NCBI GenBank assembly: GCA_964405655.1
Contig: CAYOOO010000005.1
Span: 6,335-70,334, forward strand
DNA: 64,000 nt
DNA from: an uncultured Gammaproteobacteria bacterium
GTDB taxonomy: Bacteria; Patescibacteriota; Microgenomatia; Daviesbacterales; UBA10151
Direction: 5' to 3'
A program made the translations under genes and the position numbers. The notes under the pieces were generated by a model. It was not told the origin of the DNA. It did not search any database and was given only the letters and a program-made list of their open reading frames with translations. How positions within the stretch are numbered: the first letter of the stretch is position 1; every line of letters begins with the position of its first letter. Of the stretch, positions 10,046 through 47,829 are shown in pieces.

Positions 10046-10118
10046 TCCAAGGCCCTGGAGTCGAACCAGGCTAAACAGGTTTTACAGACCTGCGCATCAA
10101 CCGCTCTGCCAGCCTTGG
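10046..10118 (-). tRNA. tRNA-Tyr (anticodon GUA). It is type I (short 5-nt variable loop) with a C1:G72 acceptor pair and A73; no encoded CCA.
   Basis: Reverse complement: CCAAGGC-TG-GCAGAGCGGTTGATGC-G-CAGGT-CTGTAAA-ACCTG-TTTAG-CCTGG-TTCGACT-CCAGG-GCCTTGG-A. This folds as a cloverleaf with GTA at positions 34-36. Confidence 0.8.
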
Positions 10119-10196: not shown

Positions 10197-12458
10197 TTAC
10201 TTATTAAATCCACCAACGAAGAAGTCCCAGATCATCTGAAGAAGACCTCTGCTTGTTTTAGCTCCTTGAACAGATGGAGCGGGCTGAGGTGCAGTCGTAC
10301 TCTCGGGTTGGGGCGCAGGAGCACTTGTTTGTGCAGGCTGAGGAGTGGACTGAGTACTAGTTGTAGTGGTTGATGAACCTCCACACTGACAGGAGCAGAA
10401 ATCACCATTCCAGTTACAAGTTCCTCCACAAGATCTGCATCCTGATTCCTGTGATTCTCTATTCATACCTGAAGGAGCTGTAGTTTGAGTGGTGGTAGTA
10501 CCTGTAGTGGTTGTTCCTGAAGTAGGTGAATTATAACCTCGGCAGTAACAGCTTCCACTACTCCAGTCACAAGTCCCACCACCAGATCTACAAGTAGCTT
10601 CTTGAGAGTCTCTAGTCATGGTGTTACCTGAGTAACTACCACTGCCACTATAAGAACTCGTTGTTCCGGAAGTAGATCCATAATTTGCATACTGACAATA
10701 TGATCCATTCCAAGTCCCACCACTATTCCTACATGCTTGTGCTGGATCATAATAGTTATTGGTGGTAGTAGCTGGTGCGCTGTAACCTTTACAATAACAG
10801 GAACCATTACTCCAATCGCAAGTTCCTCCACCCGCCTTGCAACCAGCCTCTTGTTGGTCCCTACTACTCATACCAGCATTATTGTTTCCTGAAATACCTT
10901 TCATACAATTACAGGTAGTGCCGTTGTTATCCCAACTACAATAACCACCTGATTGATTACAGGCTCTATTTTGATCTGCTGCAGGCGCATTGGTCTTAAC
11001 TTCTATCTGTGTGTAGTTGGGATTTCGATAATTTTGGCAACTACAAATTCCGCTGCTCCAATCGCAAGTACCACCGCCTGATTTACAGGTAGCCTCCTGG
11101 GAGTCTCTACTCATGGTACTACCACCATAGTAAACACCAGCACTGGTACACTGACAGGAGTTATTAGCCCAACTACAACCTGATTGGCTACACATCTTTG
11201 CAGGATCATAGTTATATGAAGCACATAGACAGCCGCCCCCAGCACCGCCAACCCAGGCACAACCTCCTCTGGCACAGGCAGCTGCAGGATCTGAGTAGTA
11301 TTTATCTGCCTGGTAATCTTTACAGGACGAACCATCCCAGTATTTACTGGCTTGTGTCGTACACTGATAAGCATCAGCGCTCTTATTTAAGGGTGTACAG
11401 ACTCCTCCCGGACCGATGTAGTAATCAGCTGGACAACGGACATAATAGTTGTAACTCTCAGTTTTTGGCCGGCATTGCTCAGGGTTGTCCCGACAGAACT
11501 CCATGTATTTTTGCTCAGCAGAACCTTTTTGGGGACTCATACATTTATCAGCGTTCTCTCGGCAGTGTCTGGCAAACTCTTCAGGGCTGGTGTAGTCACC
11601 AATTGGTCGAAAGTCTACTGCTCCACCAACAATACTTCTACAAGATTGGGGATTATTTTTACAATAATTTAAACAGCTCTCAGGTGAGTTACAACCTCCG
11701 GGTCCTCTAAATTCTCCAGGGCCACCACCAAAGTTTGAGCATTCCTGATAATTTTTGGGGTCCAGACAAAAAGTTTTACAGGTAGTTTCTGACGTGCAGC
11801 CTCCTGGGCCAACTCTCATCTCACCACCCCTTAACCCAACCTTTTGGGCAACTTCTGAACACTTTTGGCGATTCTCTTCTTTGTCGCAAAGACTCTTACA
11901 GGAGGTCGCATCATTGCAACCTAAAACCGCTTTTACCTTGTCTAAAACCCTCTCTGGTTCCTCAACATACCCGCCTGGTACTCCGATTTCTTTTGCCAGC
12001 TGATTACATTTATCATAGTTTTCCTCCTTATCACAAACATTTGCACAAGATTGAGGTGTGTTACACCCAAGAATCCTCTTGGCCGCAATTAAGAATTTCT
12101 GTTCAACTTCTGCTTTTAGACCTTCCCCCTGATAAAAACCTTTGGTCTTAGCATAGGCCACACAAGCATTTTCATTAACTGGATCTTCGCAAAAAGTTCT
12201 ACAGGATGAATAATTTGCACAATTACCCAGCTCGGCAATAGGAAAAACAATCCCGTATTTGCTGGTCTTTTTTACAACCTCTTCCTCAAGATCATCAACT
12301 CCATCATTATTTTCATCTAATACTGGATGCGAAGGGGAAATAAGAATTGGTACTTTATCAACTGTAACTAATATAAAAACAAAAACTACTAAAGGAAGAA
12401 GTAGCGATCTTAGTAATCTGCTTTTTAAAATGCTCAAAATTGAATTATTAAAAGTCAT
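10197..12458 (-). CDS. Giant secreted Cys-rich repeat protein (753 aa), copy 1 of a paralogous pair. It has a signal anchor, ~5 four-Cys repeats (LGCxxxxSCxxxCDxxxNxxKCxxxAK), four ~50-aa SRDSQEATC-SGGGTCDWSSGSC-C-GY repeats, a Thr/Ser/Pro/Gln-rich tail and a conserved hydrophobic C-terminus.
   Basis: Read from the translation. Strong collinearity with ORF 15445..17766 over the N-terminal 350 aa. Confidence 0.6.
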   Translation of the reverse strand: MTFNNSILSILKSRLLRSLLLPLVVFVFILVTVDKVPILISPSHPVLDENNDGVDDLEEEVVKKTSKYGIVFPIAELGNCANYSSCRTFCEDPVNENACVAYAKTKGFYQGEGLKAEVEQKFLIAAKRILGCNTPQSCANVCDKEENYDKCNQLAKEIGVPGGYVEEPERVLDKVKAVLGCNDATSCKSLCDKEENRQKCSEVAQKVGLRGGEMRVGPGGCTSETTCKTFCLDPKNYQECSNFGGGPGEFRGPGGCNSPESCLNYCKNNPQSCRSIVGGAVDFRPIGDYTSPEEFARHCRENADKCMSPQKGSAEQKYMEFCRDNPEQCRPKTESYNYYVRCPADYYIGPGGVCTPLNKSADAYQCTTQASKYWDGSSCKDYQADKYYSDPAAACARGGCAWVGGAGGGCLCASYNYDPAKMCSQSGCSWANNSCQCTSAGVYYGGSTMSRDSQEATCKSGGGTCDWSSGICSCQNYRNPNYTQIEVKTNAPAADQNRACNQSGGYCSWDNNGTTCNCMKGISGNNNAGMSSRDQQEAGCKAGGGTCDWSNGSCYCKGYSAPATTTNNYYDPAQACRNSGGTWNGSYCQYANYGSTSGTTSSYSGSGSYSGNTMTRDSQEATCRSGGGTCDWSSGSCYCRGYNSPTSGTTTTGTTTTQTTAPSGMNRESQESGCRSCGGTCNWNGDFCSCQCGGSSTTTTSTQSTPQPAQTSAPAPQPESTTAPQPAPSVQGAKTSRGLLQMIWDFFVGGFNK

Positions 12459-12463: not shown

Positions 12464-12718
12464 TTACTTCACTGAGTCGAAGGGATTCTTATAAACTGCA
12501 AACGGGTTAACGTATTGAGACGATTTATCAAATGGATTACTATACTCAGATTTCAAGCCAATCTTTGCCTCTTTAGATTTTTCAGATTGAAAGGAAAAGG
12601 GCAATTTTTCAAGCGGGTTTTTGATTATTCCCTGAGAAACAAGAATTGCTAGTATAGCTACTAAAATAACTACTAGGAGTAAAGGAATTAAGGCGACTAT
12701 TCCTTTTTGATTGGGCAT
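12464..12718 (-). CDS. Small membrane-anchored protein (84 aa) with a PilX_N-like N-terminus (MPNQKGIVALIPLLLVVILV) and three NPF motifs; paralog of 17763..18008.
   Basis: Shared architecture: MxNQKGI + TM ... EYxNPF..QYVNPF..YKxPF. It sits 5 nt upstream of the giant gene. Confidence 0.5.
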   Translation of the reverse strand: MPNQKGIVALIPLLLVVILVAILAILVSQGIIKNPLEKLPFSFQSEKSKEAKIGLKSEYSNPFDKSSQYVNPFAVYKNPFDSVK

Positions 12719-12748
12719 TAATTAATTATTCACTGAAATTTTTTCTGA

Positions 12749-12776
12749 GAATGTGATTTAAATCACATTTTGTCAA
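12749..12776. promoter_or_regulatory. CRP/FNR-type palindrome AATGTGAtttaaaTCACATTT, abutting TTGACA on the sense (-) strand, upstream of the small gene and giant gene.
   Basis: Matches the 22-bp consensus AAATGTGAtctagaTCACATTT at 14 of 16 half-site positions. A second copy is at 18029-18056. Confidence 0.5.
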
Positions 12777-12794: not shown

Positions 12795-13868
12795 TTAGTT
12801 CCTCTGGTAATCTTGGGCGATTCTATGAATATAACTCATGCAATCTATTTGTTCGTCCTGATTTTCTAAGCTCCGACAGATAACTTCTGATTTCTGCCTC
12901 CAATTCGGTAAATCTTGGAATACCATCTCGCCAGCTGCAAAGCGGAGACATCTTTTTTGGAAATTAACCAGCAGGGGTTGCATTTTACATAAGCTAATAA
13001 TTTTATCCGTATCTGCTTGAGAACTTAATACGCTATAAGATCCCAAAGAGTCAAAACATGCTTCTTTAAAAACCTCAGAAGTTGAGGTATTGCAAATTTC
13101 AGCTACCTGACCAACGACAAAACCAAATCTTCTAATCATCACCATTGGTTGATTTCTACCACAAGCGGTATCATAGATTTCAGGTAATTTATTACAAGGT
13201 GATAGTGGATCTTCCTGATTATAGAAGTTAGTGGAAGCAGATCTCTCAAATTCCATAAAGACTCCATCGTAACAAAACTGTTGGTTGTTAATTAACTTAT
13301 TACACTCTTTTAACGAAGCTTCTAAATCCTTAACTTTATGGAAACTTGCCAAACCGTGCCCAATTCCATGTACGCAGCTAGCAACTGGACCAGAGTTTTG
13401 CGGACCAAGTTTGTTACAAGCTTGCTCAGCCTCTGATAATTTCTCCGTTCCAAGGTAAAAGGCTTTATCTAAAAATCCGTGGAAGCAGCCGTAGGCAAAA
13501 GTAGGTGAACAAATAGACAAGCCTGAAAAGCCTGATTTGTCAAAAATGAGCCCTCCCATAAAGTGCGCTAAATCATGAGCAACATTACCACTCCCAGGAT
13601 TATTTTGATAAGTGTCAACGATAAAACTCCAAGTAGATTTTAAACCCTTTTGACCTGTTAACTTCTCAAGGTAACTATACTTTTCCTGTATATCTAGTTC
13701 CAAAAAGCCTTCTCTTGTTAAAGGAGTGAAATTTGAGTCTTGGGAAATTTCTGCATTTAGCGGTACTTGGTGATAAAACGGGTTTGTTAAAGCAAGTATA
13801 ATAAACCCTAATACCATAATCAAACCAATCAAAAAGTAGCGATCTTTTAAAACAGACAACTTAACCAT
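12795..13868 (-). CDS. Membrane-anchored Cys/His-rich repeat protein (357 aa) with ~7 repeats of C-x9-11-C-x-HG-x-GHG (e.g. CVHGIGHGL); paralog of 13869..15404 and 18070..19254.
   Basis: N-terminal TM; periodic Cys pairs; the HG-x-GHG motif degrades toward the C-terminus. Confidence 0.55.
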   Translation of the reverse strand: MVKLSVLKDRYFLIGLIMVLGFIILALTNPFYHQVPLNAEISQDSNFTPLTREGFLELDIQEKYSYLEKLTGQKGLKSTWSFIVDTYQNNPGSGNVAHDLAHFMGGLIFDKSGFSGLSICSPTFAYGCFHGFLDKAFYLGTEKLSEAEQACNKLGPQNSGPVASCVHGIGHGLASFHKVKDLEASLKECNKLINNQQFCYDGVFMEFERSASTNFYNQEDPLSPCNKLPEIYDTACGRNQPMVMIRRFGFVVGQVAEICNTSTSEVFKEACFDSLGSYSVLSSQADTDKIISLCKMQPLLVNFQKRCLRFAAGEMVFQDLPNWRQKSEVICRSLENQDEQIDCMSYIHRIAQDYQRN

Positions 13869-15404
13869 TTAATTTTTATATAACGAAGACTGGCAAGTTT
13901 GACTAAAGCCTGAATCCGCACTTTGACAAAGTTGTTCAATTTTTGTATTGTTGTTGCCGAATATATCTTTTAGTCTTTGACTCAATACCTGGAAACAGTG
14001 GGTTTTATCACGAGAGGAAGCCAACTTATTACAGAAAGTTTGTGGTTGATTAGTCATTGTTTCCCCCCAGAAGTCAACAATCACATTCAAACCACCGGTT
14101 ATACACTCTTGGAAATACCAAGGAGGCGAAACTTGGCAAAACTGAATAATCTTATCTGGATCTCTTAGGGTTTGACCAGCAATGTCCCTACCTAAACTTC
14201 TAAAACAAACACCCATCATATTCGCAGGGGTTCTCTGACATTCAGCAGCAATGGCTTGGAAGTTATAATTAAAAATACTTAGCATTCGGCTTGTTTGCAT
14301 TTGATAACACTCAAACTGGACTAACTCTGATTGATCAACACTGTTGCAAGGAAATTGAGGATCACTACTAACCCATTCAGTCTTATGACCTTTGACTGCT
14401 CCTCTCCCCTCGGCAACCATAATATTTTCCATGAACACTCCTCCAAAACACGATCTTTTAGCATAATCATTGGAAAGTTGATAACAGAGATTAATTGCTT
14501 TTGGTATATCATAGTTGATATAAGCAGTGAGACCATGACCAATGCCATGAAGGCACTCAAATTTAGAAAAATCTGTCTTGAATTTATTGCACAGGTTTTC
14601 AACTCTTTTCATTAAGGTTTTCTCCCTTTGAAGTCCCTTGGATAAGGCCTTTTGTTGGGCAATAAATGCTTCCATAGCACCATGGATAAAGCCGGAGTGA
14701 CAACTATAGTTTATTTTCTTAAAAACTGCTGATTTATAAGTTTTATAGGCAGTTCTTCCAATCAAATGCGCTTCTTGATGACAATCGACCTTGGATCCTC
14801 CGTCAGTATCTAAAACTAACTTATCCATTAATTGATTGCCTCCTAAAACAATTAACCAGTACTTTAGCTGTCTTTCGTCTTGAGCTAGTCGGTAAGCATC
14901 AGTGGTTTGCAGCTTCGCATAGAGTTTTTTAGGAAAAATTACATAATAAATTCTTGCTAAGTAAGCTTTAATATCATTTATCAATGAAGTTAAGTTAAAT
15001 TTTTTGGTGTTGTCTTTAGATGGTGTAAATTGTGTTGATCCAGATTCTGAAACTGTAATTTTCCCAATAAGATGAGGATTGAGGTGATCATGGAATTTAA
15101 ATATACCTGCTTTTTCAAACTTGAACTTCCAAACTTCGCCAGGTTGGATTGGCCTTTTTGGATCAAACTCTTTATAAATCAAATGAATGGGGTGAAAATC
15201 TGAAGCCGGCCAGCGTGCATCAGTATCCTCGTTTTTAAAAATTACCTCCTGACCTTTTTTAATTGTTATTTCATCTGGTTTGAATTCACCATCCTTAAGC
15301 AATATTGTTGCTTCCTCAGAGGACAAAACAGCTTTTGAGAAAAATATAGAATAACAAATTAATCCAAACAGGAAAACAAACCCAAACCTTCTCAGTCTAC
15401 CCAT
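13869..15404 (-). CDS. Membrane-anchored protein (511 aa) with an N-terminal cupredoxin-like beta-sandwich (no Cys ligand; HDHLNPH) followed by ~9 Cys/His repeats (CHSGFIHG, CLHGIGHGL).
   Basis: Translation read directly. The stop abuts the start of the next paralog. Confidence 0.55.
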   Translation of the reverse strand: MGRLRRFGFVFLFGLICYSIFFSKAVLSSEEATILLKDGEFKPDEITIKKGQEVIFKNEDTDARWPASDFHPIHLIYKEFDPKRPIQPGEVWKFKFEKAGIFKFHDHLNPHLIGKITVSESGSTQFTPSKDNTKKFNLTSLINDIKAYLARIYYVIFPKKLYAKLQTTDAYRLAQDERQLKYWLIVLGGNQLMDKLVLDTDGGSKVDCHQEAHLIGRTAYKTYKSAVFKKINYSCHSGFIHGAMEAFIAQQKALSKGLQREKTLMKRVENLCNKFKTDFSKFECLHGIGHGLTAYINYDIPKAINLCYQLSNDYAKRSCFGGVFMENIMVAEGRGAVKGHKTEWVSSDPQFPCNSVDQSELVQFECYQMQTSRMLSIFNYNFQAIAAECQRTPANMMGVCFRSLGRDIAGQTLRDPDKIIQFCQVSPPWYFQECITGGLNVIVDFWGETMTNQPQTFCNKLASSRDKTHCFQVLSQRLKDIFGNNNTKIEQLCQSADSGFSQTCQSSLYKN

Positions 15405-15444: not shown

Positions 15445-17766
15445 CTAATTTTTTCCTAGCAAGAAGTTAATCACTCTCTGAAGCCAGCTGACTTGAGTGC
15501 TTGCTCCTGCTACACCGCCAGCGTCACTGCTAGGAGGTGGGGGCGGAGGGGGCTCTGGTGGAGGCGGGGGAGGGGTTTCATAGCTTGGAGTTCCATAAGA
15601 AGGGGTAGCATAACTCGGTGTACCGTAACTTGGGGTAGCATAACTTGGACTCGGATAAGAATAAGATGGTGATGGGTATGAGTAAGATCCAGGGGTGGGA
15701 TAACTATAGGTACCTGAGGGAGTGTAATAGCTAGGTGAAGGATAAGAATAGCTACCAGAAGGTGTTGGATAAGAATAACCAGGTGTTGGGTAGGAGTAGC
15801 CTGATGAAGGAGTTAAGTAGCTTTCTGGTGTGTAGTAAGTTGGGGTGGTATAACTACTACCTGGTGGAGGAGTGTAGTAGGATGGTGTTACATAATTTCC
15901 TCCAGAAGGAGTGTAGTAGGTCGGGGAGGTGTAGGTACTGCCAGGAGGAGGAGTGTAATAGCTAGGTGTATTATAAACCGCTGGTGTATAGTAGCTTGGG
16001 GTGGTGTAATTTGAACCAGGAGGTGGGGTATAGTAGGTCGGTGTGGTATATGAACCTGTTACATTGATTGGAGTATAGTAGGTTGGTGTGGTATAAGGCG
16101 GTGGCGTGGTGTAATTAGGTGTGGTATAACTCGATCCCGGAGGTGGAGTATAGTAATAGGGTGTAGTGTACCTTGGTGGGGTGTAGTAAGTCGGGGTGGT
16201 GTAATTTGAGCCAAGAGGAGGGGTATAGTAGGAAGGCGTGTTATATGAAGGTGTTGGGTAATTTCCTTGCGGAGTTGGATAGTAGGTTCCTGGTGTATAG
16301 TAAGTTGGGGTGGTATAACTACTACCTGGTGGAGGAGTGTAATAAGAAGGAGTCAAGTAGATACCTGGCGTATAGTAGCTTGGGGTGGTGTAATTTGATC
16401 CCGGAGGTGGAGTGTAGTAGACAGGCGTGACATAAAAACTTGTTGCGGGCGGGGTATAGTAAACAGAATCTTTAGGCGGAGTATAGTAAGTACCTGGGAC
16501 AAAATTATCTAGGGGTCTTGGAGATTTAGCATCAAATCCCTGACATTTGCCTGGATTGTCCTTACAAAAGTCATAACAAGCGCCTGGTGAGTCACAATTC
16601 CCCATCTCTTTAACTGGCTCCATTTTGACAGGAGTCCCGGGTGTGTAATATATAGAGGGTAAATATTTATCTGTTGGTCTCGGGCCACTTCCATCAAAGC
16701 CTCCACATTTACCTGGGTTTTCTTTACAATAGTCATAACAGGCTCCAGGGGTCTTACAATTTCCCATATCAGGTCTAGGTTGAAAGTATGCACCACCTGC
16801 TGTTGGGTTAATCCCTGGTGGCGGGCTGTCTTGACAGCTTGATCCACTCCAATATTTACCTCCTTGGGCACAGGATTGAGCTACTTGTGTCTTATCATTC
16901 GGTGTGCAAGCACCTCCAGGTCCAAAATTCTGTCCAGCCGGGCAAGCTACCGGAACATAGGCTCCATTGGAACCTGGTGCATAGCTCCTACAATCAGCTG
17001 GGTTTTGTTCACAATGCGATCGGCAGGATTCAGGGTTATTACATCCTCCTGGGCCTTGGAATTGTTGGCCTGGTGGAGCAAAAGCCTGACATTTACTAAA
17101 GTTATTTGGATCAGCGCAGAAGTTTTTACAAGTAGCATCTGAATTACATCCTCCTGGGCCCTCTTTAACCTCTCCCCCTAAAAGCCCAACTGACTTAGCA
17201 AACTGGTCACATTTTGCAGCATTGGCCTGGTTATCACAAAAGCTGCTACAGCTGGCAGCTGAATCACAACCTAAGATTTTCTTGGCTTGATCTAAAAACT
17301 GTGGTTTATCTGGTTCTTGGACATAACCTCCAATAATCTCTTCTTCTTTAGCAAAACCATCACATTTATCTTTATTTTCAGCTTTTGAGCAGAAGTCTAA
17401 ACACTCTTCCTTATCTTTACAACCTAAACCATCTTGAGTTTTCTTCCAAAATTCATCATCAGCAGCTAAAACTTTATCCTGTTTATAAAAACCCTTTTTC
17501 TTGGCATAGTCTGCACAGGAGGAAAAGTTGACTGGATCATCGCAATAAGCTAAACATTCTCCTTTGTTCTCGCAGTTGCCCAAATCTTTGATGGGAAAGA
17601 CTACAGCGTTATCTTGTCCACCTGGCGCAGGTGAGGCAGTTGGGCTTGGGGCAGGAGAAGGGGATGTTGTTTGAGCTTTTGCTTGAGTACTAAAAAAGAA
17701 GACTAGAATTGAAGCTGCCAGTAGTATTGCTAACTTATTTAGATTTCCTCTAATTAAATTGATCAT
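15445..17766 (-). CDS. Giant secreted Cys-rich repeat protein (773 aa), copy 2. Its N-terminal 4-Cys repeats are homologous to copy 1. The C-terminal ~300 aa are tandem Tyr/Thr/Pro-rich repeats (TPSYYTPPPGSNYTTPTYYTP), then poly-Pro and a conserved hydrophobic C-terminus.
   Basis: Signal peptide; PIKDLGNCENKGECLAYCDDPVNFSSCADYAKKKGFY aligns with the copy-1 PIAELGNC... block. The start overlaps the small gene stop (ATGA). Confidence 0.6.
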   Translation of the reverse strand: MINLIRGNLNKLAILLAASILVFFFSTQAKAQTTSPSPAPSPTASPAPGGQDNAVVFPIKDLGNCENKGECLAYCDDPVNFSSCADYAKKKGFYKQDKVLAADDEFWKKTQDGLGCKDKEECLDFCSKAENKDKCDGFAKEEEIIGGYVQEPDKPQFLDQAKKILGCDSAASCSSFCDNQANAAKCDQFAKSVGLLGGEVKEGPGGCNSDATCKNFCADPNNFSKCQAFAPPGQQFQGPGGCNNPESCRSHCEQNPADCRSYAPGSNGAYVPVACPAGQNFGPGGACTPNDKTQVAQSCAQGGKYWSGSSCQDSPPPGINPTAGGAYFQPRPDMGNCKTPGACYDYCKENPGKCGGFDGSGPRPTDKYLPSIYYTPGTPVKMEPVKEMGNCDSPGACYDFCKDNPGKCQGFDAKSPRPLDNFVPGTYYTPPKDSVYYTPPATSFYVTPVYYTPPPGSNYTTPSYYTPGIYLTPSYYTPPPGSSYTTPTYYTPGTYYPTPQGNYPTPSYNTPSYYTPPLGSNYTTPTYYTPPRYTTPYYYTPPPGSSYTTPNYTTPPPYTTPTYYTPINVTGSYTTPTYYTPPPGSNYTTPSYYTPAVYNTPSYYTPPPGSTYTSPTYYTPSGGNYVTPSYYTPPPGSSYTTPTYYTPESYLTPSSGYSYPTPGYSYPTPSGSYSYPSPSYYTPSGTYSYPTPGSYSYPSPSYSYPSPSYATPSYGTPSYATPSYGTPSYETPPPPPPEPPPPPPPSSDAGGVAGASTQVSWLQRVINFLLGKN
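15546..16500 (-). repeat. In-frame tandem DNA repeats of ~30-60 bp encoding the YYTPPPGS(N/S)YTTP(S/T)YYTP units inside the 773-aa gene.
   Basis: Visible periodicity of ggtggagg/agtgtagtag/ccaggtgg units on the + strand. Confidence 0.6.
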
Positions 17767-18008
17767 TTTTGTTCAAAAGTAAGAAACGGACTCTTATATT
17801 CATCAAAAGGATTAACATATTGGTTTTCCTTTTTGAAAGGATTTTTATACTCTGTTTTAACCGCTACTTTTGGCTCTTGCTTGACTAGGTTAGAGAAACC
17901 GGGGATTTTAAATGAACCTTTAGAGTAAAAGAGGAATAAACCGACGCCAAGGATAACAACAATTAACACAAGCAGTAAAAGGTGGGCGATTCCTTTTTGA
18001 TTAATCAT
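17763..18008 (-). CDS. Small PilX_N-like NPF protein (81 aa), copy 2.
   Basis: MINQKGIAHLLLLVLIVVILGVGLFLF ... EYKNPFKKENQYVNPFDEYKSPF; paralog of 12464..12718. Confidence 0.5.
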   Translation of the reverse strand: MINQKGIAHLLLLVLIVVILGVGLFLFYSKGSFKIPGFSNLVKQEPKVAVKTEYKNPFKKENQYVNPFDEYKSPFLTFEQK

Positions 18009-18028
18009 TTTTTTAGTACTTAACTAAA

Positions 18029-18056
18029 TAATGTGACGCAGATCACAATTTGTCAA
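18029..18056. promoter_or_regulatory. Second CRP/FNR-type palindrome AAATGTGAcgcagaTCACAATT with adjacent TTGACA, upstream of cassette copy 2.
   Basis: Same arrangement as 12749-12776 (TTGACAAAtTGTGA-N6-TCACA on the sense strand). Confidence 0.5.
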
Positions 18057-18069
18057 GTATTAAAATTTC

Positions 18070-19254
18070 CTATATTTGGGAGAGGCAGCCTGTTCTGAAG
18101 GGCTCTTCTAAAGAGGAACATAACTCAAGCTTTCTGACATTGCTTGAAGGCTCTGAAGTAATTTGCCCGATAATATTTTGGTAACAGCTTTGTTTGCCCT
18201 CAGCAGAGATCTTTTTGCAGATCTCTATGGCAGTCGTAGAGTCTCCCACTGAATAATAAGAACCTGCATTAACTGAAATACAACTATTTAGCCAATCACT
18301 ACCCATTTGCTGACAAAGGCTAAAGACCTTTGATATATCACCCTCAGTTAACGGATGAATTTGTCTTGCCAGGTTATCCATACACCAGTCAGTATATTGC
18401 TTATTACCAGTATTTAAACAAGCCTCCGCTGTCTTAGGGATACCTCCCAAATACATCTGATAAATCCTTGCAGCTTGATTTAACCAACAGCCCTTTTGGT
18501 ATTTTTCCCCAAAATAATTACATGGAAAATAAGGATCATCAGATAACCAATCTCTTTTTGGAGTTTTATCTTTTCCCCAATCATGAACTCCGAAGAGATT
18601 CTCCATAAACGCACCATTATGACAAGAAGAGAGTGCCTCTGGAAACTGGCTTTCTTTTTCAAAGACTTCGTCACAGGTATTTAAGGCCTTGGGAAGATCA
18701 TAATTCCAAATTGCCAAAATTGCATGGCCAGCAGCATGGGCACATTGAAAATATCTTAAGGGAGACTCTTTGCATTTATCTGCCATCCCAGCAACTACCT
18801 CAAATCCTTGATCGCTAGCAGCCTCAATAATTGCTCCGTGATAACAGGCATATAAAAAGTAGTCTTTGCACTTTAGAATTGAATCCAGTTTATATTTTTG
18901 ATAGGCATAAAAACCAATTTGATGGACAGCTAGGTGTCCTTCACCAGTATGAGGAAGGCTAGAGTGTTCTAAAATTTCTAGGGCTTGTTCCACATCTACT
19001 CTTTCGACTAATTTCCTTGTTGCTTTAAGCCGAATTTCTTGATTGTCTGACAAGATTTCTGTCAGTTCAGGAACATTTTCTGGCGTATATAATATCTTAC
19101 CTGCGGCTTGAGAGGTTGGTGTTAAGTTAATAACTGACTTAAATTTCATCAGTTCCTTTTTATCTAATTTAGGATAAGGTAATAGAGCAATAAGTAAAAG
19201 AACTAAAACTATTAGGCTTAAAAAGAAAATTAACTTGGTATTCCTAAAATACAT
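18070..19254 (-). CDS. Membrane-anchored Cys/His repeat protein (394 aa) with CAHAAGHAIL and CYHGAIIE motifs; paralog of 12795..13868 and 13869..15404.
   Basis: N-terminal TM; periodic C-x9-11-C repeats. Confidence 0.55.
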   Translation of the reverse strand: MYFRNTKLIFFLSLIVLVLLLIALLPYPKLDKKELMKFKSVINLTPTSQAAGKILYTPENVPELTEILSDNQEIRLKATRKLVERVDVEQALEILEHSSLPHTGEGHLAVHQIGFYAYQKYKLDSILKCKDYFLYACYHGAIIEAASDQGFEVVAGMADKCKESPLRYFQCAHAAGHAILAIWNYDLPKALNTCDEVFEKESQFPEALSSCHNGAFMENLFGVHDWGKDKTPKRDWLSDDPYFPCNYFGEKYQKGCWLNQAARIYQMYLGGIPKTAEACLNTGNKQYTDWCMDNLARQIHPLTEGDISKVFSLCQQMGSDWLNSCISVNAGSYYSVGDSTTAIEICKKISAEGKQSCYQNIIGQITSEPSSNVRKLELCSSLEEPFRTGCLSQI

Positions 19255-19268: not shown

Positions 19269-19679
19269 TCATCTTATTCGGTGTCTTCTTTTGACTCGCA
19301 GCCTGGCTAGAGATTTTTCCAAAATAGCCAAAGTTTCAGCATACTCCTCACCTGAAAGTTTTTGTTCTAAAGCTGCCTCAGCCCGTTTTTTGGCTTCCTC
19401 AGCAGCTCTTTCATCTATCTCCTCAGCTTTTTCTGCCAGATCAGCCATCACTGTTAAGATATTATTACTCACTTGCAAAAAGCCTTCACCCACTGCCAAA
19501 ACATCAACTTTTCCCCCCTTTTTAATTCGTAGCTCACCAGGCACTACTTTAGCCAATAAATTAGCGTGATGAGGCAGGATACCAATCTCTCCTTGTTCAG
19601 TTGAGATATTAACTTGATCAACTGTCTCATCAAAAATTTCTTTCTCAGGTGTCACTAACTTCAGATGCAAATCCGCCAT
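19269..19679 (-). CDS. atpC: F1 ATP synthase epsilon subunit, separated from the rest of the atp operon.
   Basis: MADLHLKLVTPEKEIF...GEIGILPHHANLLAKVVPGELRI... plus a C-terminal helical hairpin. The ORF can extend to 19703. Confidence 0.8.
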   Translation of the reverse strand: MADLHLKLVTPEKEIFDETVDQVNISTEQGEIGILPHHANLLAKVVPGELRIKKGGKVDVLAVGEGFLQVSNNILTVMADLAEKAEEIDERAAEEAKKRAEAALEQKLSGEEYAETLAILEKSLARLRVKRRHRIR

Positions 19680-19703
19680 AGCGGTATTATCGCAAATTTG
19701 CAT

Positions 19704-19709
19704 ATAATT
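19704..19709 (+). promoter_or_regulatory. TATAAT -10 box ~19 nt upstream of the 19729 ATG, in the divergent region with atpC.
   Basis: An exact TATAAT is present. Confidence 0.3.
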
Positions 19710-19728
19710 AGTAAGAGTTTAAAATCTT

Positions 19729-21234
19729 ATGAGTGGGGATCGATCGAATGAGTTACCAAGAGTCAGCCGAAGAGAATTGGTAAGTCCAACTAGAAGGACT
19801 AATACTCTAGCAACTCGACCAAATATTCTAACTCCATCTCCAGACAGAGTAAGACAAAGACAGGCAAGAAGAGAAAAGATTAAACAAGAACAAAGACGGG
19901 CTCTGCTGGGAATTGCAGGGGCAGCAACTCTAGCTGCAACATTTGCAGGAGCAAAACCTGCAATGGAGGCAGCCCAAAATATCGGAAGGGCAATAACTGG
20001 GGCAAAACCCATGGATCAGCAACCTGTTCAAGCTATCTTACATCCAGTTGATCCCACTGGTGAAAGGACAGCTCCAGCAACTGGAGTTCAAGCTGCAGAA
20101 AGACCCAGACTGCAATCACTTTTAGACAATATCCTAACTACCCCCTTAAATACCCCCCAAAGATTTGATGCAGAAAAAGCTTATGCAGATTCTGCCCAAA
20201 GCTTAAGTGAGATTAACCAAGGATTATGGACAATAACTGATTGGAACTTAAGAATTGGGCTCTTAGACAAAAGATATGCCTTAAGAGATGAGAATAACCC
20301 AAATCATCAACCTCTAACAAAAGAGCAAGCTGATTGGGCAGATAAAGAGTATATCCATCCTGAAACTTTAGCAATTACTATTCAAGCCAGAGAACTGGCT
20401 CAAAAAATTTTAGCTGAATATATTTCTAAAAGAGTTGGCGGATGGTCCAGTTTTAGGCCAGATTTGGCAGCTAAAGTTAAATCTGGTGAGCTTCCACCAG
20501 ATTTTTTTAATAAACTAAGCCCCGGAGATGTCCTAATTAATCCCGGCGGAATGGCTAGGATGGTGGTTTGGGAAACAGGCCAGGGACTACCTAAAGACAA
20601 ACCTCAGGGGGCAGTCTCCTCAATCTTGAGCAGAATCAAGAATAAAATTTCTCCGGAGAGATTTCTGATGTACGGCTTTGTGAACATTGGTTTTACCCCG
20701 GCAAGGTCTCAAATTGATGCAAATACTTTCCTGACTAAAAGATATGACAACAAGGATGCTCTATCATATTTGGCTGGTGAGCTTTCAAAAGAGACAGGTT
20801 TGAATTTCACAGAAAATAATTTACCAGGTTCCTCAAAGGTAGAAATTAAACCGGGCGATAATGACAATGCAATTGCTGAAAAACAACTTAGAAGTACTGT
20901 CTCAGGGGGAGCAGTTGGGCTACAGATGATGCCTGAGGTTATAGCAAATTATCAGTCTAACCCAATAATCCATGAAGCATTTAAAAGAAACGGCCTAACT
21001 ATTAATCCTTACGACCCAGTCTCAGCTACAACTCTAGGCTATCTATTCTTAGCCCAATCTGTTGCTACATCAGGAGGGAATTTCCAGTATGGCTTCCTAA
21101 ATAATACTCATCCTGATCTGAAAGGAAAAGAGACAATGGTTAAAGCTTTTAAGAAAGACTCACTTTTAACCTGGAATAGATTTGATAATCAAGTCAGAGA
21201 AGTCCTGGATTCAGAAGAAAGTTTTAGAATATGA
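19729..21234 (+). CDS. Membrane-anchored protein with a C-terminal lytic-transglycosylase (SLT)-like motif.
   Basis: TM helix (ALLGIAGAATLAATFAGA); EKQLRSTVSGGAVGLQMMPE resembles the SLT E-S...GA-GLMQ-MP signature. Confidence 0.45.
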   Translation: MSGDRSNELPRVSRRELVSPTRRTNTLATRPNILTPSPDRVRQRQARREKIKQEQRRALLGIAGAATLAATFAGAKPAMEAAQNIGRAITGAKPMDQQPVQAILHPVDPTGERTAPATGVQAAERPRLQSLLDNILTTPLNTPQRFDAEKAYADSAQSLSEINQGLWTITDWNLRIGLLDKRYALRDENNPNHQPLTKEQADWADKEYIHPETLAITIQARELAQKILAEYISKRVGGWSSFRPDLAAKVKSGELPPDFFNKLSPGDVLINPGGMARMVVWETGQGLPKDKPQGAVSSILSRIKNKISPERFLMYGFVNIGFTPARSQIDANTFLTKRYDNKDALSYLAGELSKETGLNFTENNLPGSSKVEIKPGDNDNAIAEKQLRSTVSGGAVGLQMMPEVIANYQSNPIIHEAFKRNGLTINPYDPVSATTLGYLFLAQSVATSGGNFQYGFLNNTHPDLKGKETMVKAFKKDSLLTWNRFDNQVREVLDSEESFRI

Positions 21235-21596
21235 ATACCCATAGTTGTGAAACACTAATTGCAACCTGTATAGACTTCAGGTTTCAGGAATATATTAATG
21301 ATTGGATAAAGGAAAATTTTAGTCCCAAAACTTATGATAGGGTGGCCTTTGCCGGGGGAGTAAAAGAATTTGAAACTATCTTTGGACAAATTGAAACTTC
21401 AAAAAGGCTCCATGATATTAAAAAAGTAGTTTTAATAAATCATGAGGATTGCGGGGCATATGGAGAGTCTGGTACTAAAAAGAAGCATATCCAAGATCTA
21501 AAACAGGCATCTTCCCGAATTAAAAAGCAGTACTCAGATTTAGAAGTAGCAACTTATTATCTTAAACTAAGCGGCACTTTTGAAAAAATTCAATGA
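21231..21596 (+). CDS. Small beta-carbonic-anhydrase-like protein (121 aa) carrying the CxDxR and HxxCG zinc-site motifs.
   Basis: CIDFRF and INHEDCGAYG. It overlaps the upstream gene by 4 nt. Confidence 0.4.
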   Translation: MNTHSCETLIATCIDFRFQEYINDWIKENFSPKTYDRVAFAGGVKEFETIFGQIETSKRLHDIKKVVLINHEDCGAYGESGTKKKHIQDLKQASSRIKKQYSDLEVATYYLKLSGTFEKIQ

Positions 21597-21973
21597 AAAC
21601 TATTAAGCAAAGTTATTTAATAAATGCTCAAGTTAGTAAAGTCTGGCAGGCTTTGGTGAATCCAAAAATTATTGATGAGTGGGGTGGGGGACCGGCAAAA
21701 ATGAGCGAGAGAGAAGGCAGCAGTTTCTCTCTTTGGGGAGGAGATATTCATGGCAGTAATCTTAAAGTGATAAAAAACAAACAACTTGTCCAGGATTGGT
21801 ATTCAGGTGACTGGGAGAATTCTTCCAAAGTTACTTTTACGTTAAAATCAGATGGTCAAAAAACAGAAGTAGATTTACTCCATGAAGAAGTGCCAGATGA
21901 TGAAGCAGATGAAATAGAAGATGGCTGGCAAAGATTTTATTTAGGACCGCTCAAAGATTACTTAGAAAAATAA
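21593..21973 (+). CDS. SRPBCC/AHSA1-like (START-fold) protein.
   Basis: SKVWQALVNPKIIDEW ... acidic C-terminus; 4-nt overlap with the upstream gene. Confidence 0.45.
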   Translation: MKTIKQSYLINAQVSKVWQALVNPKIIDEWGGGPAKMSEREGSSFSLWGGDIHGSNLKVIKNKQLVQDWYSGDWENSSKVTFTLKSDGQKTEVDLLHEEVPDDEADEIEDGWQRFYLGPLKDYLEK

Positions 21974-22162
21974 CTTCTCTCTTCCTTGATTTTTAGAATA
22001 TTTTGACGCACAATGCTAACCATGTCTTTAGTGGATCATCAACAGCAAAGAAGAGTTTGGGAAGAGGTCATATAAGAAGACTAATGATTGTTTGCATCAC
22101 ATAGTAATTTTTCAAAAAAAGTAACTCTTTAGATCCCATAGTTTGATTTTAAATAAGGTTGT

Positions 22163-22172
22163 GACTATAATC
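22163..22172 (+). promoter_or_regulatory. TGACTATAAT extended -10-like promoter upstream of the methyltransferase gene.
   Basis: TG-ac-TATAAT ~15 nt before the ATG at 22186. Confidence 0.3.
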
Positions 22173-22185
22173 TGAAAGATTAATT

Positions 22186-22836
22186 ATGGCTAAAGCTGAA
22201 GATATTGTAGCTCATACTGAAGGGTACTTCTCTCAAATCAGGACGAAGACCAAGCCTCAAACAGTGACAATTGCTGGGGTGGAGATTGTGGTTAACCCAG
22301 GGGTTTTTATGCCTGCAACTGATAGCAGATTGCTGGCAGATAACATTAGAGTAGGATTAGGTACTTCTTTCTTGGACATCTCAACTGGATGTGGTCTGCA
22401 TGCTGTTGTAGCAGGCCTCAGAGGAGGGTTTGGAATAGCTACAGATATTAATCCAGAGGCAGTTAGAAACGCACAAGAGAATTTCTGTAGATATAAGTTA
22501 AGAGTAATGGCCTTAGAGTCAGATATGTTTGACTCTATCCCAGCTTGGAACTTTGAGTTAATCATGGCTAATGGACCATTTCATGAAGGAGAAATAAAAG
22601 ACCGTCTAGATTATGCCCGTTTTGGAGCAGCCAGGTTTCATCAAGGGTTACTTGAAGGCGCCAGAACTCATTTAAGAAGGAATGGTAGGCTACTTATAGC
22701 TTTTGCCCAGTGGGCAGATACAGCTTGTCTTATGCATCAGATAGAAAATAATGGATTCCAAGCCCAAGTTATAGACAGACGCTCATCAGAAGATGGCCAA
22801 AGAACATATGATCTTTATGAGGTAAGATTTGCTTAA
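22186..22836 (+). CDS. SAM-dependent methyltransferase, HemK/PrmC/RsmC-like (NPPF-type motif NGPF).
   Basis: FLDISTGCGLHAVVA (motif I) and IMANGPF (motif IV). Confidence 0.6.
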   Translation: MAKAEDIVAHTEGYFSQIRTKTKPQTVTIAGVEIVVNPGVFMPATDSRLLADNIRVGLGTSFLDISTGCGLHAVVAGLRGGFGIATDINPEAVRNAQENFCRYKLRVMALESDMFDSIPAWNFELIMANGPFHEGEIKDRLDYARFGAARFHQGLLEGARTHLRRNGRLLIAFAQWADTACLMHQIENNGFQAQVIDRRSSEDGQRTYDLYEVRFA

Positions 22837-22841
22837 AATAT

Positions 22842-23324
22842 ATGTCACTAGAATCACAAACAAATAGAAACTATCCTGGATATGTTCAACTAATTCGGGA
22901 TTTGTTTATTACCCGAAAAGGGCTAATCTCAAACTTAACGCCTACTGAGTTGTTAGCTCCTGATAAAAAAGAGGCTTATTTACAACACGTTATAAAAAGT
23001 CCCCAAGAGCTAGGTATGTTGGCAGATGCTTTAGATGAGGCATTTAGAGAATCCAAACAAGCACAGCTCTTGTCTGATCGGGAAGAAGCAGTCCTAAGAA
23101 TGCGCTACAGTCTAGACGATCCTGCCCTAGAAGGCAGAACTTTAAGCGAAGTTGCTGCTCAGACCCCCAGATTAACCACTACCACCAAAAGATCAATAGG
23201 CCAACAAGGTTTATCAGTGGAAAGAACCAGGACTATTATTGAGGAAGCACTGGCTAAAATTAGACATTACAGCAGACAAAAACCAATCTTTGGGTTTACA
23301 GCCAACACTGATTTTTACTTATGA
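22842..23324 (+). CDS. Sigma-70 region-4-like HTH protein (160 aa).
   Basis: LSDREEAVLRMRY...TLSEVAAQ...GLSVERTRTIIEEALAKIR matches the sigma region 4 pattern. Confidence 0.45.
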   Translation: MSLESQTNRNYPGYVQLIRDLFITRKGLISNLTPTELLAPDKKEAYLQHVIKSPQELGMLADALDEAFRESKQAQLLSDREEAVLRMRYSLDDPALEGRTLSEVAAQTPRLTTTTKRSIGQQGLSVERTRTIIEEALAKIRHYSRQKPIFGFTANTDFYL

Positions 23325-24352
23325 GTTTAACCAGAGAAACAGAGGTTTACTTAAACCATACTCAAAGATTCTTATCCGAAAGAAAGGGAATACCCAGAGC
23401 GATAAGAAGATCCAGACAACGACCGGAAGTTTTAAACCAGGCATTGGAGGATTTAGAACTAGCTGTGCTTCACCTCAATGGCTTTATCAACTCATCCGAT
23501 AAACCCTTAGGTCTAAGACAAGCATTGTTACCGTTTTCTACAATAATCAAAACTGAGCTTGAAGAAGGAACAAGCTTCTACTTTCTCAGAGAGGGGAAAA
23601 ACTTACCATCTCCAAAAAATGAAGCCGGCAGAAAAACTCCTCAAGCTATCGAAGAGGCTAGAGCGATTTTCAAGCAAGCGGATAAGTTTATGTATTGGGG
23701 AGATTTAAATGTCAGTGGAGGCTGGAAATTTCACAGACAGCTTAAAGATCTGTCCCAGCTTGTTAATTCTTTTGCTATTGAAATGTATGGACTTTTGGCA
23801 GCATATAGATCTTTGCCTCTTTGGAATAAAAGCAGCACAGTAGTTTTAGCATTAGAGGAGATGCTAGCTGTCCATGGAACCAATACTAAAATGTATCAGG
23901 CAATCAAAGGCTGGTACAGTTTGGATGAAGGTTTTTCACCAATTCTAGTCGGGATGATTGAAGGTAGGGTAGATGTTCCTTTTAGGTTTGGTCAGGCAAT
24001 CAGAGTCACTCCTAGCTTTGTAGTATTTGACGGATATAAACCTGGTCTTGAGGGAAAAGCAGAAGGGCAAAGGTGGTATATCTCTCCAAGAACTGATGCA
24101 GCAGAACAGATGCTAATTGAGGCTGCTAAACTACATAGAATTGGTCAAGGTTTAACTCAACCTCATCAAGTTTTGGCTCCAATCAGTCAAACCAGAACTT
24201 TACTCAGAACAGATAGGACTTCAGATAATTTAAGAGTTTTAATTGGTGGTGCAGTGGATAAACCTAAAGAATGGGAAGATGCTGCTCCAACCCCAGATAG
24301 AATGGAACAGTGCTTAAGCTTACACCCAGATTTCTACAGCTTTTATGATTAA
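23321..24352 (+). CDS. Hypothetical protein (343 aa).
   Basis: ORF with a 4-nt overlap with the upstream gene; no recognisable motifs. Confidence 0.35.
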   Translation: MSLTRETEVYLNHTQRFLSERKGIPRAIRRSRQRPEVLNQALEDLELAVLHLNGFINSSDKPLGLRQALLPFSTIIKTELEEGTSFYFLREGKNLPSPKNEAGRKTPQAIEEARAIFKQADKFMYWGDLNVSGGWKFHRQLKDLSQLVNSFAIEMYGLLAAYRSLPLWNKSSTVVLALEEMLAVHGTNTKMYQAIKGWYSLDEGFSPILVGMIEGRVDVPFRFGQAIRVTPSFVVFDGYKPGLEGKAEGQRWYISPRTDAAEQMLIEAAKLHRIGQGLTQPHQVLAPISQTRTLLRTDRTSDNLRVLIGGAVDKPKEWEDAAPTPDRMEQCLSLHPDFYSFYD

Positions 24353-24509
24353 TATCAAAAATCAGCCAAATTTATTCAAGTTATAGGCAAAAGAGAGACA
24401 TATCACCAAATTGCCTATATTAAAAAACTAAGCTGCTTTTGATTTTTAGTCTTTAGAGTAGCAAACTAGCTTTGGTGTCAACGAATCAGCATTAATTACA
24501 AAATTTATT

Positions 24510-24785
24510 ATGTCCAACGGGAGAGAACCTGTAGAAAAACGTGGAAGTTCAAATCATTACATAGAATTAGCCAGGTTTATGTGGGCACTCTTGGCGGGAA
24601 AAAATGAAGATAAAATGTTAGTCTTGGCAGCTCGAGCATCTGTTGTAGGTGGTGTTTCGACCGGAGCAGCAATAGTAGGATTTGCCACAGGTAGACTTGA
24701 GATTGCTGCTCTGGGCGGAAGTCTGACATATCTCAGCGGTTATATTGGACTCAGGGCTGTAAATGCTTCTAAGAACCAGGGTTAG
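24510..24785 (+). CDS. Small hypothetical membrane protein (91 aa).
   Basis: Gly/Ala-rich hydrophobic stretch. Confidence 0.3.
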   Translation: MSNGREPVEKRGSSNHYIELARFMWALLAGKNEDKMLVLAARASVVGGVSTGAAIVGFATGRLEIAALGGSLTYLSGYIGLRAVNASKNQG

Positions 24786-24787
24786 GT

Positions 24788-27008
<2,221 letters not shown>

Positions 27009-27011
27009 AAT

Positions 27012-28517
27012 TTAATTTTTGCTTGTTTTCTGAAAGACCTTAACAAACTCTTTAGTAACCTTTTCTAATTCTTTGGTTAATTTCTCATCTAACTCTTTCT
27101 TCTCTGCTATCTTAGTCAAAAGCTTTTTAGTTCTTAATCTTAAATATTTGACATATTCTTCTTCTGCCTCTTTGACTTTATCAACTGATATTTCATCAAA
27201 ATGGCCATTAGTTACAGCCCAAAGGGAAGCTACTTGCTCCTCAACTGAAACAGGGGAGAAAGGAGGTTGTTTTAGAACCTCAGTAATTCTTCTGCCTCTT
27301 TCAATTTGCATCTTGGTATTTGGATCTAAATCAGAGGAGAATTGAGCAAACGCAGCCAGTTCTCTAAATTGGGCTAAGTCCAGCTTAAGCCTACCTGCTA
27401 CGCCTTTCATAGCTTTAGTCTGGGCTGCACCACCAACCCTTGAGACTGATAAACCCACATTTAAAGCCGGCCTGATTCCTGCAAAAAATAAGTCTGTCTC
27501 CAAATAAATCTGTCCATCAGTAATAGAGATAACATTTGTTGGAATATAGGCTGAGACATCTCCGGCTTGAGTCTCTATAATAGGTAGGGCTGTTAAAGAA
27601 CCTCCACCAAAATCCTCATTTAACCTAGCTGCCCGCTCTAAAAGCCTGGAGTGAAGATAAAAGACATCGCCTGGATAAGCTTCTCTTCCAGAAGGCCTTC
27701 TTAAAAGCAGGGACATCTGTCTGTAAGAGTTAGCATGTTTTGACAGATCATCATAAACGACCAAGGCATCCCTGCCTTGATCCATGAAATATTCTCCAAT
27801 TGCACAACCAGAGTAGGGAGCCAGGTATTGCATAGGAGCGGGATCAGAAGCTGTTGCTGATAGCACAATGGTGTGATCCATGGCACCAAACTCCTCTAGT
27901 CTAGCTACAATTTGAGCAACTTTAGAGGTCTTTTGACCAATTGCCACATAAATACAAATAACGTCTTTCTGATTAATGATTGTATCTACGGCAATGGTGG
28001 TCTTGCCTGTATTTCGATCGCCAATAATTAGCTCCCTTTGACCCCGACCAATCGGGATCAGGGCATCAATTGCCTTAATACCTGTTTGCAAAGGAGTGTT
28101 AACTGACTGTCTGGTAATAACTCCTGGAGCAATCTTTTCAACTGGGTAGGCCTTATCTGTTTTAATTGGACCCTTACCATCAATCGGTTGACCTAAGGCA
28201 TTAACAACCCGACCAATCATTGAGTCGCCAACTGGTACTTCCAAAACCTTACCAGTTGTTTTAACAGTATCACCTTCCTTAACCTTGGTAAAATCTCCCA
28301 AGATAACGCTCCCAACATTGTATTGCTCTAAATTCAAAGCTAAACCAAAAATCTCTTTACCAAAGTCCAAAAGCTCAGAAGATTGAACATCTGATAAACC
28401 ATCTATCCTGGCTATTCCATCTCCAGCCTCAGTTACAGTGCCGATATTTTCTTTGGTCGCCTTAAGCTTAAAACCCTTTATCTGTCTTTCAATCTGCGAA
28501 ACTAAATCACTAACCAT
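27012..28517 (-). CDS. atpA: F1 ATP synthase alpha subunit.
   Basis: GDRNTGKT P-loop; alpha-specific regions. Confidence 0.95.
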
Positions 28518-28905: not shown

Positions 28906-28907
28906 TT

Positions 28908-29402: not shown

Positions 29403-29432
29403 TATAATAGCAGTTAGTAGTGGGTGACGACG

Positions 29433-29500
29433 AGCGGGGCGCCCCTGAATGGGGCCCCAGGCTTGTTAGCCTAGTGGTAAATTCCCCTGTCTCGAGTCGG
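29433..29500 (-). promoter_or_regulatory. GC-rich palindromic hairpins (GGGGCGCCCC, GGGGCCCC, GCCGACTCGAGACAGGGG) in the atpE-atpF intergenic region. Probably a partial terminator or processing element.
   Basis: A local GC island in an AT-rich genome, immediately 3' of atpE on the sense strand. Confidence 0.3.
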
Positions 29501-29522
29501 CAGGACCCACAGCACAAAAAAA

Positions 29523-47827: not shown

Positions 47828-47829
47828 AT

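Follow-up and report, generated by a model that had tools for sequence, protein, structure and literature searches.

The stretch of DNA analyzed here (64,000 nucleotides, hereafter the window) carries two exact copies of the palindrome TGTGA-N6-TCACA, each lying between the -35 and -10 hexamers of a promoter that precedes one of two paralogous gene cassettes. Comparison with related genomes suggests that these dyads are probably Crp/Fnr-family operators, a standard kind of element. On balance, we lean towards the view that they are the operator of a dimeric Crp/Fnr factor belonging to a Microgenomates-specific branch, which would repress both cassettes in trans. Next to nothing is known of transcriptional regulation in bacteria of the Candidate Phyla Radiation (CPR), which are not growable alone, and the value of the finding lies in the lineage, the kind of element itself being ordinary. 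The analysis yields a candidate regulator-operator pair: a promoter of the form CTTGACAA-17-TATAAT-like, a CRP-type dyad inside it and, in sister genomes, a Crp/Fnr gene at that promoter. A widespread uncharacterised surface-protein operon, possibly metal- or redox-responsive, is indicated as the regulated function. If true, the reading of a repressor from a CPR branch would define a transcription factor together with its operator and regulon, in a lineage that is uncultivated and has reduced genomes.

The first cassette and the DNA upstream from it comprise the following features.

12795..13868, minus strand: 357-aa gene, with its stop 19 nt upstream of the copy-1 -35 (ORF call)
12771..12776, minus strand: -35 hexamer TTGACA of the copy-1 promoter, part of CTTGACAA (sequence, and conservation in 52/59 upstream regions)
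12749..12770, no strand assigned: operator-like dyad of copy 1 (sequence, motif counts, top PWM score in the window, 16.4 bits)
12748..12753, minus strand: predicted -10 hexamer CATTCT of copy 1 (3/6, with A2 and T6), 17 nt after the -35 (placed by spacing)
12464..12718, minus strand: 84-aa small membrane protein gene, first gene of cassette 1, with the C-terminal motif YxNPFDKxxQYVNPFxxYKNPFD (ORF call)
10197..12458, minus strand: 753-aa Cys-rich secreted protein gene, second gene of cassette 1 (ORF call, homologs)

A first-pass annotation had pointed to a near-consensus CRP-type palindrome upstream of this cassette. The plus strand at 12749-12770 indeed reads GAATGTGATTTAAATCACATTT, with an exact TGTGA-N6-TCACA core at 12752-12767 and 19 of 22 positions equal to the E. 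coli CRP consensus, AAATGTGATCTAGATCACATTT. The description of the element as a perfect 22-bp dyad needs trimming: symmetry is perfect over the 20 bp from 12750 to 12769 (AATGTGATTTAAATCACATT, a palindrome of the classic CRP type), whereas the outermost pair of the 22-mer (G...T) is unmatched, leaving 21/22 to the idealised palindrome. On the sense (minus) strand the region reads CTTGACA-AAA-TGTGA-TTTAAA-TCACA-TTCTCAG...ATG. TTGACA (12776 to 12771) is thus followed, after 3 nt, by the dyad, the order first described, and the dyad centre falls 41 nt upstream of the ATG at 12718, in agreement with the earlier estimate of about 40 nt. The 84-aa ORF could not extend further upstream, because a stop codon stands two codons before this ATG; the 753-aa ORF begins 5 nt after the 84-aa ORF, and all genes here are on the minus strand. 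The concern that the motif might lie inside a coding region was checked as well: the dyad is intergenic, in the 76-nt gap below the end of the 357-aa ORF at 12795. No terminator was found between the 357-aa gene and the dyad.

Loci L165 and L082, from the near-identical strain GCA_016176395.1, annotated as Candidatus Daviesbacteria, and from one Logan assembly, have TTGACAG, not TTGACAA, by the copy-1 -35 (window position 12770, A). The copy-1 dyad is intact in both, with this substitution right beside the -35. The assembly with the TTGACAG variant has no gene call at the place of the 753-aa gene of the window. Directly downstream of the latter, the window carries a tRNA gene (10046-10118, minus strand).

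Other copies of the dyad, whose presence had been raised as a check, were sought in the window, and a second exact core (TGTGACGCAGATCACA, 18032-18047) was found at the equivalent place upstream of cassette copy 2.

18070..19254, minus strand: 394-aa gene, located upstream of copy 2; its ortholog in relatives stands before the Crp/Fnr gene (63% identity with the 407-aa protein of the Daviesbacteria contig L083)
18009..18069, minus strand: 61-nt gap between the 394-aa and 81-aa genes, the syntenic slot of the 238-aa Crp/Fnr gene in L083, empty here (synteny)
18051..18056, minus strand: -35 hexamer TTGACA of the copy-2 promoter (promoter scan, TTGACA-17-CATTAT, 10/12)
18029..18050, no strand assigned: operator-like dyad of copy 2, TAATGTGACGCAGATCACAATT, core 18032-18047 (motif counts, second PWM score, 15.5 bits)
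18028..18033, minus strand: -10 hexamer CATTAT of the copy-2 promoter (4/6; same promoter scan)
17763..18008, minus strand: 81-aa small membrane protein gene of copy 2 (43% identical to copy 1)
15445..17766, minus strand: 773-aa Cys-rich secreted protein gene of copy 2 (37% identity with copy 1 in the N-terminal 380 aa)

The second dyad lies in the 61-nt intergenic gap, directly after CTTGACAAA, as in copy 1, and its sequence is identical in five other assemblies of the species (six independent assemblies in all). To judge from the identity of their small (43%) and large (37%) proteins, the two cassettes are evidently old duplicates. When aligned, the two intergenic regions share CTTGACAAA[A/T]TGTGA......TCACATT, with four of the six spacer bases and most other DNA differing. 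Half-sites kept while the spacer drifts are the pattern expected of a dyad bound by protein, and they point to selection on the half-sites in both dyads; a recent duplication or gene conversion would have left no such pattern. As a separate feature of copy 2, a longer inverted repeat, itself imperfect, extends over the whole intergenic region (18009-18069; -15.5 kcal/mol when folded as RNA, z -4.3) and has no comparable counterpart in copy 1.

Promoter architecture was examined in 80 homologous loci (L001-L080) fetched from species-representative genomes, 56 of which conserve the small-large gene pair; the homologs of the large protein came from Candidatus Daviesbacteria and other Microgenomates. 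A total of 59 regions upstream of the small gene were analyzed, 57 from the fetched loci plus the two in the window. Of the 59, 52 contain TTGACA, in most cases within CTTGACAA, and a TATAAT-like hexamer usually follows it after 17-18 nt. In 27 regions the TTGACA starts 34-38 nt before the start codon, and the TATAAT-like hexamer, 16-18 nt downstream, ends 6-9 nt before the start; many such mRNAs would therefore be nearly leaderless. Given this conservation, CTTGACAA is evidently the -35 element of a conserved sigma-70-type promoter of the operon across Microgenomates. Within the window, the consensus promoter scan made no call at the copy-1 -10 (CATTCT), where the prediction is weak. Each dyad takes up the 17 nt that separate the -35 from the -10 (predicted in copy 1), and the last two nucleotides of its core coincide with the first two bases of the -10. 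Relative to the predicted TSS, the 16-bp core extends from about -26 to -11, with its centre at about -18.5.

These positions bear on the sign of the regulation, which the first-pass annotation had left open as either activating or repressing. The location of the dyad inside the -35/-10 spacer of a conserved promoter favours repression; the activating half of the alternative fares poorly, as the predicted TSS places the dyad centre away from the class I and class II positions (-61.5 or further upstream, and -41.5) and the -35 is perfect where such promoters usually have a poor one. We infer repression because the promoter has a perfect -35 and a spacer of the optimal 17 nt, and the site lies where the polymerase footprint would be. 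In the mechanism that we propose, a Crp/Fnr-family dimer with CRP-like DNA-reading residues would bind the dyad and occupy DNA needed by RNA polymerase, causing repression; release of the regulator from the DNA upon some signal would turn the operon on. The same factor would control both paralogous cassettes (at 12.7 and 18.0 kb) in trans, from a gene located away from the place that it holds in relatives.

Activation, with a Crp/Fnr-type site helping RNA polymerase at a promoter with a poor -10, strikes us as unlikely. The -10 hexamers of the window are weak enough to invite this explanation (CATTCT, 3/6; CATTAT, 4/6), most studied members of the Crp/Fnr family are activators, and three related loci (L037, L019 and L012) have a similar dyad upstream of their -35, in an activator-like position. 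The window dyads, however, are centred inside the spacer rather than near -41.5, -61.5 or beyond, next to a -35 that is a perfect, conserved TTGACA; a good -35 is typically missing from promoters that depend on CRP. Since the spacer already has the optimal length of 17 nt, a remodelling of the MerR type would not be needed. Furthermore, AR1, the surface used for activation, is conserved only within the clade of E. coli CRP (PMC12531629).

With no terminator between the upstream gene and the dyad, the palindrome could also act in RNA, as a hairpin on a read-through sense transcript that serves as a processing, stability or attenuation signal. The 31-nt copy-1 segment folds at -7.6 kcal/mol (z -3.3), the copy-2 intergenic region reaches the -15.5 kcal/mol (z -4.3) given above, and the TGTGA/TTACA version found in relatives (see below) would still pair through G-U. 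Yet neither the copy-1 intergenic region as a whole (z -0.37) nor the core hairpin of copy 2 (z -1.2) folds better than shuffled sequences, and the 17 promoters preserve the stem at the level of sequence, without compensatory changes. Transcription from the conserved -35 would leave most of the dyad outside the RNA. A role in RNA thus appears very improbable. A terminator or riboswitch was considered separately and rejected: there is no U-tract or GC-rich stem and no Rfam match, and the folds are weak or inconsistent between copies.

The link between the dyad and the Crp/Fnr family comes from relatives that carry the same operon. In five of the fetched loci (L044, L045, L048, L051 and L054), the gene directly upstream of the small gene encodes a 211-225-aa protein with the Pfam domains HTH_Crp_2 and cNMP_binding. 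The same arrangement is seen in L083, L171 and L173, the proteins of the whole set measuring 211-238 aa; their cNMP_binding scores are near or below the Pfam cut-off. Among the 80 homologous loci of other species, none has an exact TGTGA-N6-TCACA at the operon. This first looked like a refutation, until the TTACA variant beside the Crp genes was seen: the promoters of the five loci read CTTGACAA-N9/10-AATTGTGAC-N5-ATTACAAT, one mismatch from the CRP core. Within the species-representative set, a dyad between the -35 and the start codon occurs in 5/5 regulator-adjacent promoters, as opposed to 0/52 of the others from other genomes (Fisher p ~2e-7).

A database search with one of these regulators returned 108 relatives, some of them named "Crp/Fnr family transcriptional regulator" (Levybacteria, Daviesbacteria). 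One, P0200, is encoded on contig L083, where the order is atpC, 407-aa gene, crp (238 aa), small, large, ..., small, large; a dyad is found at the first cassette of this contig and none at the second. When metagenomes were scanned with the regulator alignment, the genes for close homologs were all followed by the promoter-plus-dyad and the small gene, except in L095. Altogether, 17 of 17 distinct regulator-adjacent promoters carry TTGACAA-N10/11-(A/G)ATTGTGAC-N5-ATTACAAT, representing 13 distinct 22-mers. The relaxed motif TGT[GA]A-N6-T[CT]ACA has 12 matches in 865 kb of related loci, eight of them in small-gene promoters. Another of the 12, ATTTGTGATTTTGCTTACAAAT (L010, 13174-13195), precedes a stand-alone Crp-like gene of Daviesbacteria by about 30 nt. 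Situated in a divergent intergenic region shared with a gene for a 903-aa secreted protein, it may be an autoregulatory site.

A PWM trained on the 13 foreign (regulator-adjacent) sites only, none of them from the window, was run over the 64-kb window. The two window dyads rank first and second, at 16.4 and 15.5 bits, and the next site scores 11.1. The maximum in shuffled windows averages 8.5 bits, the highest being 16.0 (one of 50 shuffles); the training sites themselves score 25-30 bits, against 15-16 for the window dyads. This ranking, together with the regulator-adjacent dyads of relatives and the base-contact residues described below, supports the suggestion made at first reading that a Crp/Fnr-family regulator controls the cassette.

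The same data dispose of coincidence. The earlier remark that such a dyad is unlikely by chance is borne out by the counts, as the window has two exact TGTGA-N6-TCACA motifs where 0.04 are expected, and at least two were found in 0 of 100 shuffles. Chance palindromes in AT-rich intergenic DNA could be argued from the absence of enrichment when up to two mismatches are allowed (22 found, 27.6 expected) and from the one shuffled window at 16.0 bits. Set against this are the two exact cores, their homologous promoter positions, their conserved flanks and the linkage of the motif to Crp genes in relatives; the chance reading is effectively refuted, and we assign it next to no probability.

The window dyads are not replicas of the regulator-adjacent sites. 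Their distance from the -35 is 8-9 nt shorter than that in any of the regulator-adjacent promoters, and they are symmetric (TCACA), the others asymmetric (TTACA). In the regulator-adjacent promoters the dyad sits over the -10 and the start region, which, by its placement, is evidently a repressor position too. Orthologous cassettes elsewhere show further arrangements: L037 (3531-3546), an ortholog of copy 2, has a perfect palindrome, TGTAATCTAAATTACA, immediately upstream of its -35, not downstream, and in L019 and L012 similar dyads occur about 14 nt upstream of the -35.

The first-pass annotation had asked for a Crp/Fnr-family gene elsewhere in the genome. No Crp-like ORF was found in the 64-kb window, either with the subfamily HMM on all six-frame ORFs or with Pfam on 40 proteins, and none in about 14 kb of flanking DNA available from GCA_016176395.1 (7 kb beyond each window end); about 78 kb were covered altogether. 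The regulator matches in databases, traced by accession, all come from other assemblies, and a search with an N-terminal fragment of the stand-alone L010 regulator gave one match only. A 216-aa ORF (22186-22836) beside a one-mismatch dyad was considered as a regulator candidate and rejected, being methyltransferase-like and its dyad overlapping the start codon of the next gene. That dyad (TGTCACTAGAATCACA, 22843-22858) is probably due to chance; the ORF whose ATG it overlaps is 160 aa long and has a Sigma70_r4 domain.

Gene order in the window matches that of L083, with atpC (19269-19703) followed by the 394-aa gene, small, large, ..., and crp missing. This raises the prospect that a Crp/Fnr gene was lost from the slot between the 394-aa and small genes and that the dyads are its non-functional leftovers. 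The empty slot fits, as does L164, the closest relative of cassette 1 (large protein 73% identical), which has the TTGACA promoter and has lost, or never had, the dyad. Decay is hard to reconcile, however, with two perfect cores (10/10) in promoters that have otherwise diverged, or with a site identical in six independent assemblies. Moreover, a dyad accompanies the second cassette in the window and is missing from that of L083, a distribution other than simple inheritance from the adjacent-regulator arrangement would produce. We therefore consider leftover sites improbable.

A dimeric regulator of some other family, such as a winged-helix/HTH repressor, might recognise a TGTGA-type palindrome with no Crp/Fnr protein being involved here. 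Such an explanation would accommodate both the lack of a Crp-like gene in about 78 kb of the genome and the different position and symmetry of the window dyads relative to the regulator-adjacent class. The window also encodes possible DNA-binding proteins, with PaaX_M (39152-39709) and Sigma70_r4 (22842-23324) domains. But half-site and spacing agree exactly with those of the dyads found alongside Crp/Fnr genes at the orthologous operon, and linkage of any other regulator to the operon was not seen in 58 loci. A regulator from outside the Crp/Fnr family is accordingly rather unlikely in our estimate. Leftover sites, a regulator of another family and activation all stay alive because the regulator was not found in the 78 kb, because L164 lacks the dyad and because the window sites differ in position, symmetry and score.

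Several genes in this part of the window deserve mention in their own right. The 357-aa, 394-aa and 511-aa proteins (12795-15404 and 18070-19254) are paralogs, with 23-28% identity, and match no Pfam family apart from the N-terminal Cupredoxin_1 domain of the 511-aa protein. The 511-aa gene abuts the 357-aa gene in the same frame, the ATG of the latter coming right after the stop codon of the former. The two ORFs were considered as a single split gene (868 aa, compared to an 863-aa protein of L083); this was rejected, since they are paralogs that match overlapping parts of the 863-aa protein. In the region from 19269 to 30506, atpC stands apart from the rest of the ATP synthase operon (24788-30506), separated by about 5 kb of opposite-strand genes for a 501-aa protein, Pro_CA_2, AHSA1, a methyltransferase and the Sigma70_r4 protein; a similar interruption is found in L083. 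Further along, a type IV pilus-like cluster (PilO, PilN, several N_methyl pilins, secretion ATPase) occupies 39152-56033, together with the PaaX_M/Cas2-like protein (39152-39709) and an IS200-like Y1 transposase (55359-56033).

The favoured reading, repression by a Crp/Fnr dimer, draws on the residues with which the regulators of relatives would contact DNA. Aligned to E. coli CRP (hhalign probability 98%), they place GLARESVT(R/K)E on GCSRETVGRI, retaining R180, E181 and R185 in the form of R, E and R/K. CRP makes its specific contacts with bases through these three residues, according to the listing in PMC12531629. The ligand side is different. The CRP contacts to cAMP, E72, R82 and S83, align to M, K and Y, unlike what is expected of a cAMP-sensing CRP; the alignment of 19 regulators has no conserved Cys, and the half-site is GTGA, not TTGA, unlike what is expected of an oxygen sensor of the FNR type. 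With the cAMP contacts replaced and no conserved Cys, the effector would therefore be neither cAMP nor an FNR-type Fe-S cluster. By sequence, the closest solved structure to P0200 is that of NtcA (E 1e-13).

TGTGA-type dyads also follow closely after the genes of more remote branch members, TGTGATTGCAATCACC in L097 and L098 and TGTGATCTAAATCACA in L104, the latter almost equal to the core of window copy 1. In L097 (4004-7946; the same in L098), TGTGATTGCAATCACC is followed by genes whose products, by eye, look like a small CsoR-family protein, a DsbD/CcdA-like multi-pass membrane protein and a large protein with multicopper-oxidase motifs. These neighbours and the Cupredoxin_1 domain in the 511-aa protein of the window hint at a copper or redox theme for the regulator branch. 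In its most extended form, the proposal would be that a CPR-specific Crp/Fnr branch, devoid of cAMP or Fe-S ligands, supplies a dedicated repressor of a lineage-wide surface operon, possibly with a copper or redox signal, acting here in trans on two operons. The operon in question consists of a small membrane protein and a giant Cys-rich secreted protein, next to cupredoxin-like genes. We hold this extended proposal to be possible but doubtful.

Proteins that combine HTH_Crp_2 and cNMP_binding are common in Levybacteria and Daviesbacteria MAGs (L044, L045, L048, L051, L054, L083, L171, L173 and L084-L094). A 2025 survey of about 6,000 genomes had reported that the CPR clade conspicuously lacks proteins joining a Crp/Fnr HTH to a ligand-binding domain (PMC12531629). 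Judged by their domain content, such proteins clearly exist in Microgenomates MAGs, and the impression given by the survey is corrected to that extent. A search of the literature on promoters or Crp in CPR found nothing relevant beyond this survey.

Among known systems, the E. coli CRP site offers the nearest match in sequence: its TGTGA/TCACA half-sites, 6-bp spacer and A/T-rich flanks are those of the window dyads. The window dyads differ in place and host, lying inside a -35/-10 spacer with a perfect -35, rather than at -41.5, -61.5 or further upstream, in a CPR bacterium, and the regulators of relatives lack the cAMP contacts of CRP. The FNR box (TTGAT-N4-ATCAA) belongs to the same family and has the same 5-N-5 geometry; copy 1, as GTGAT-TTAA-ATCAC, agrees with it at four of five positions per half-site, but the discriminating base is G (GTGA) in the window dyad and T (TTGA) in FNR. 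NtcA, the cyanobacterial global nitrogen regulator, recognises GTA-N8-TAC, and the TTACA half-site of the operators beside regulator genes resembles that of NtcA (TGTA...TACA). However, at the position of CRP E181, NtcA has V and the regulators of relatives E, and the window dyads show GTG...CAC instead of GTA...TAC; nor is there any sign of a 2-oxoglutarate pocket in the relatives' regulators. Sites at which Crp/Fnr-family members act as repressors by overlapping core promoters include those of GlxR in Corynebacterium, the NtcA-repressed promoters and FNR at ndh. The window dyad resembles these in being a family-type dyad placed over the -35/-10 region, an arrangement that would imply steric exclusion of RNA polymerase. 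GlxR, NtcA and FNR are global regulators with many targets, in contrast to the regulator of the relatives, which appears to be local and is encoded beside the single operon.
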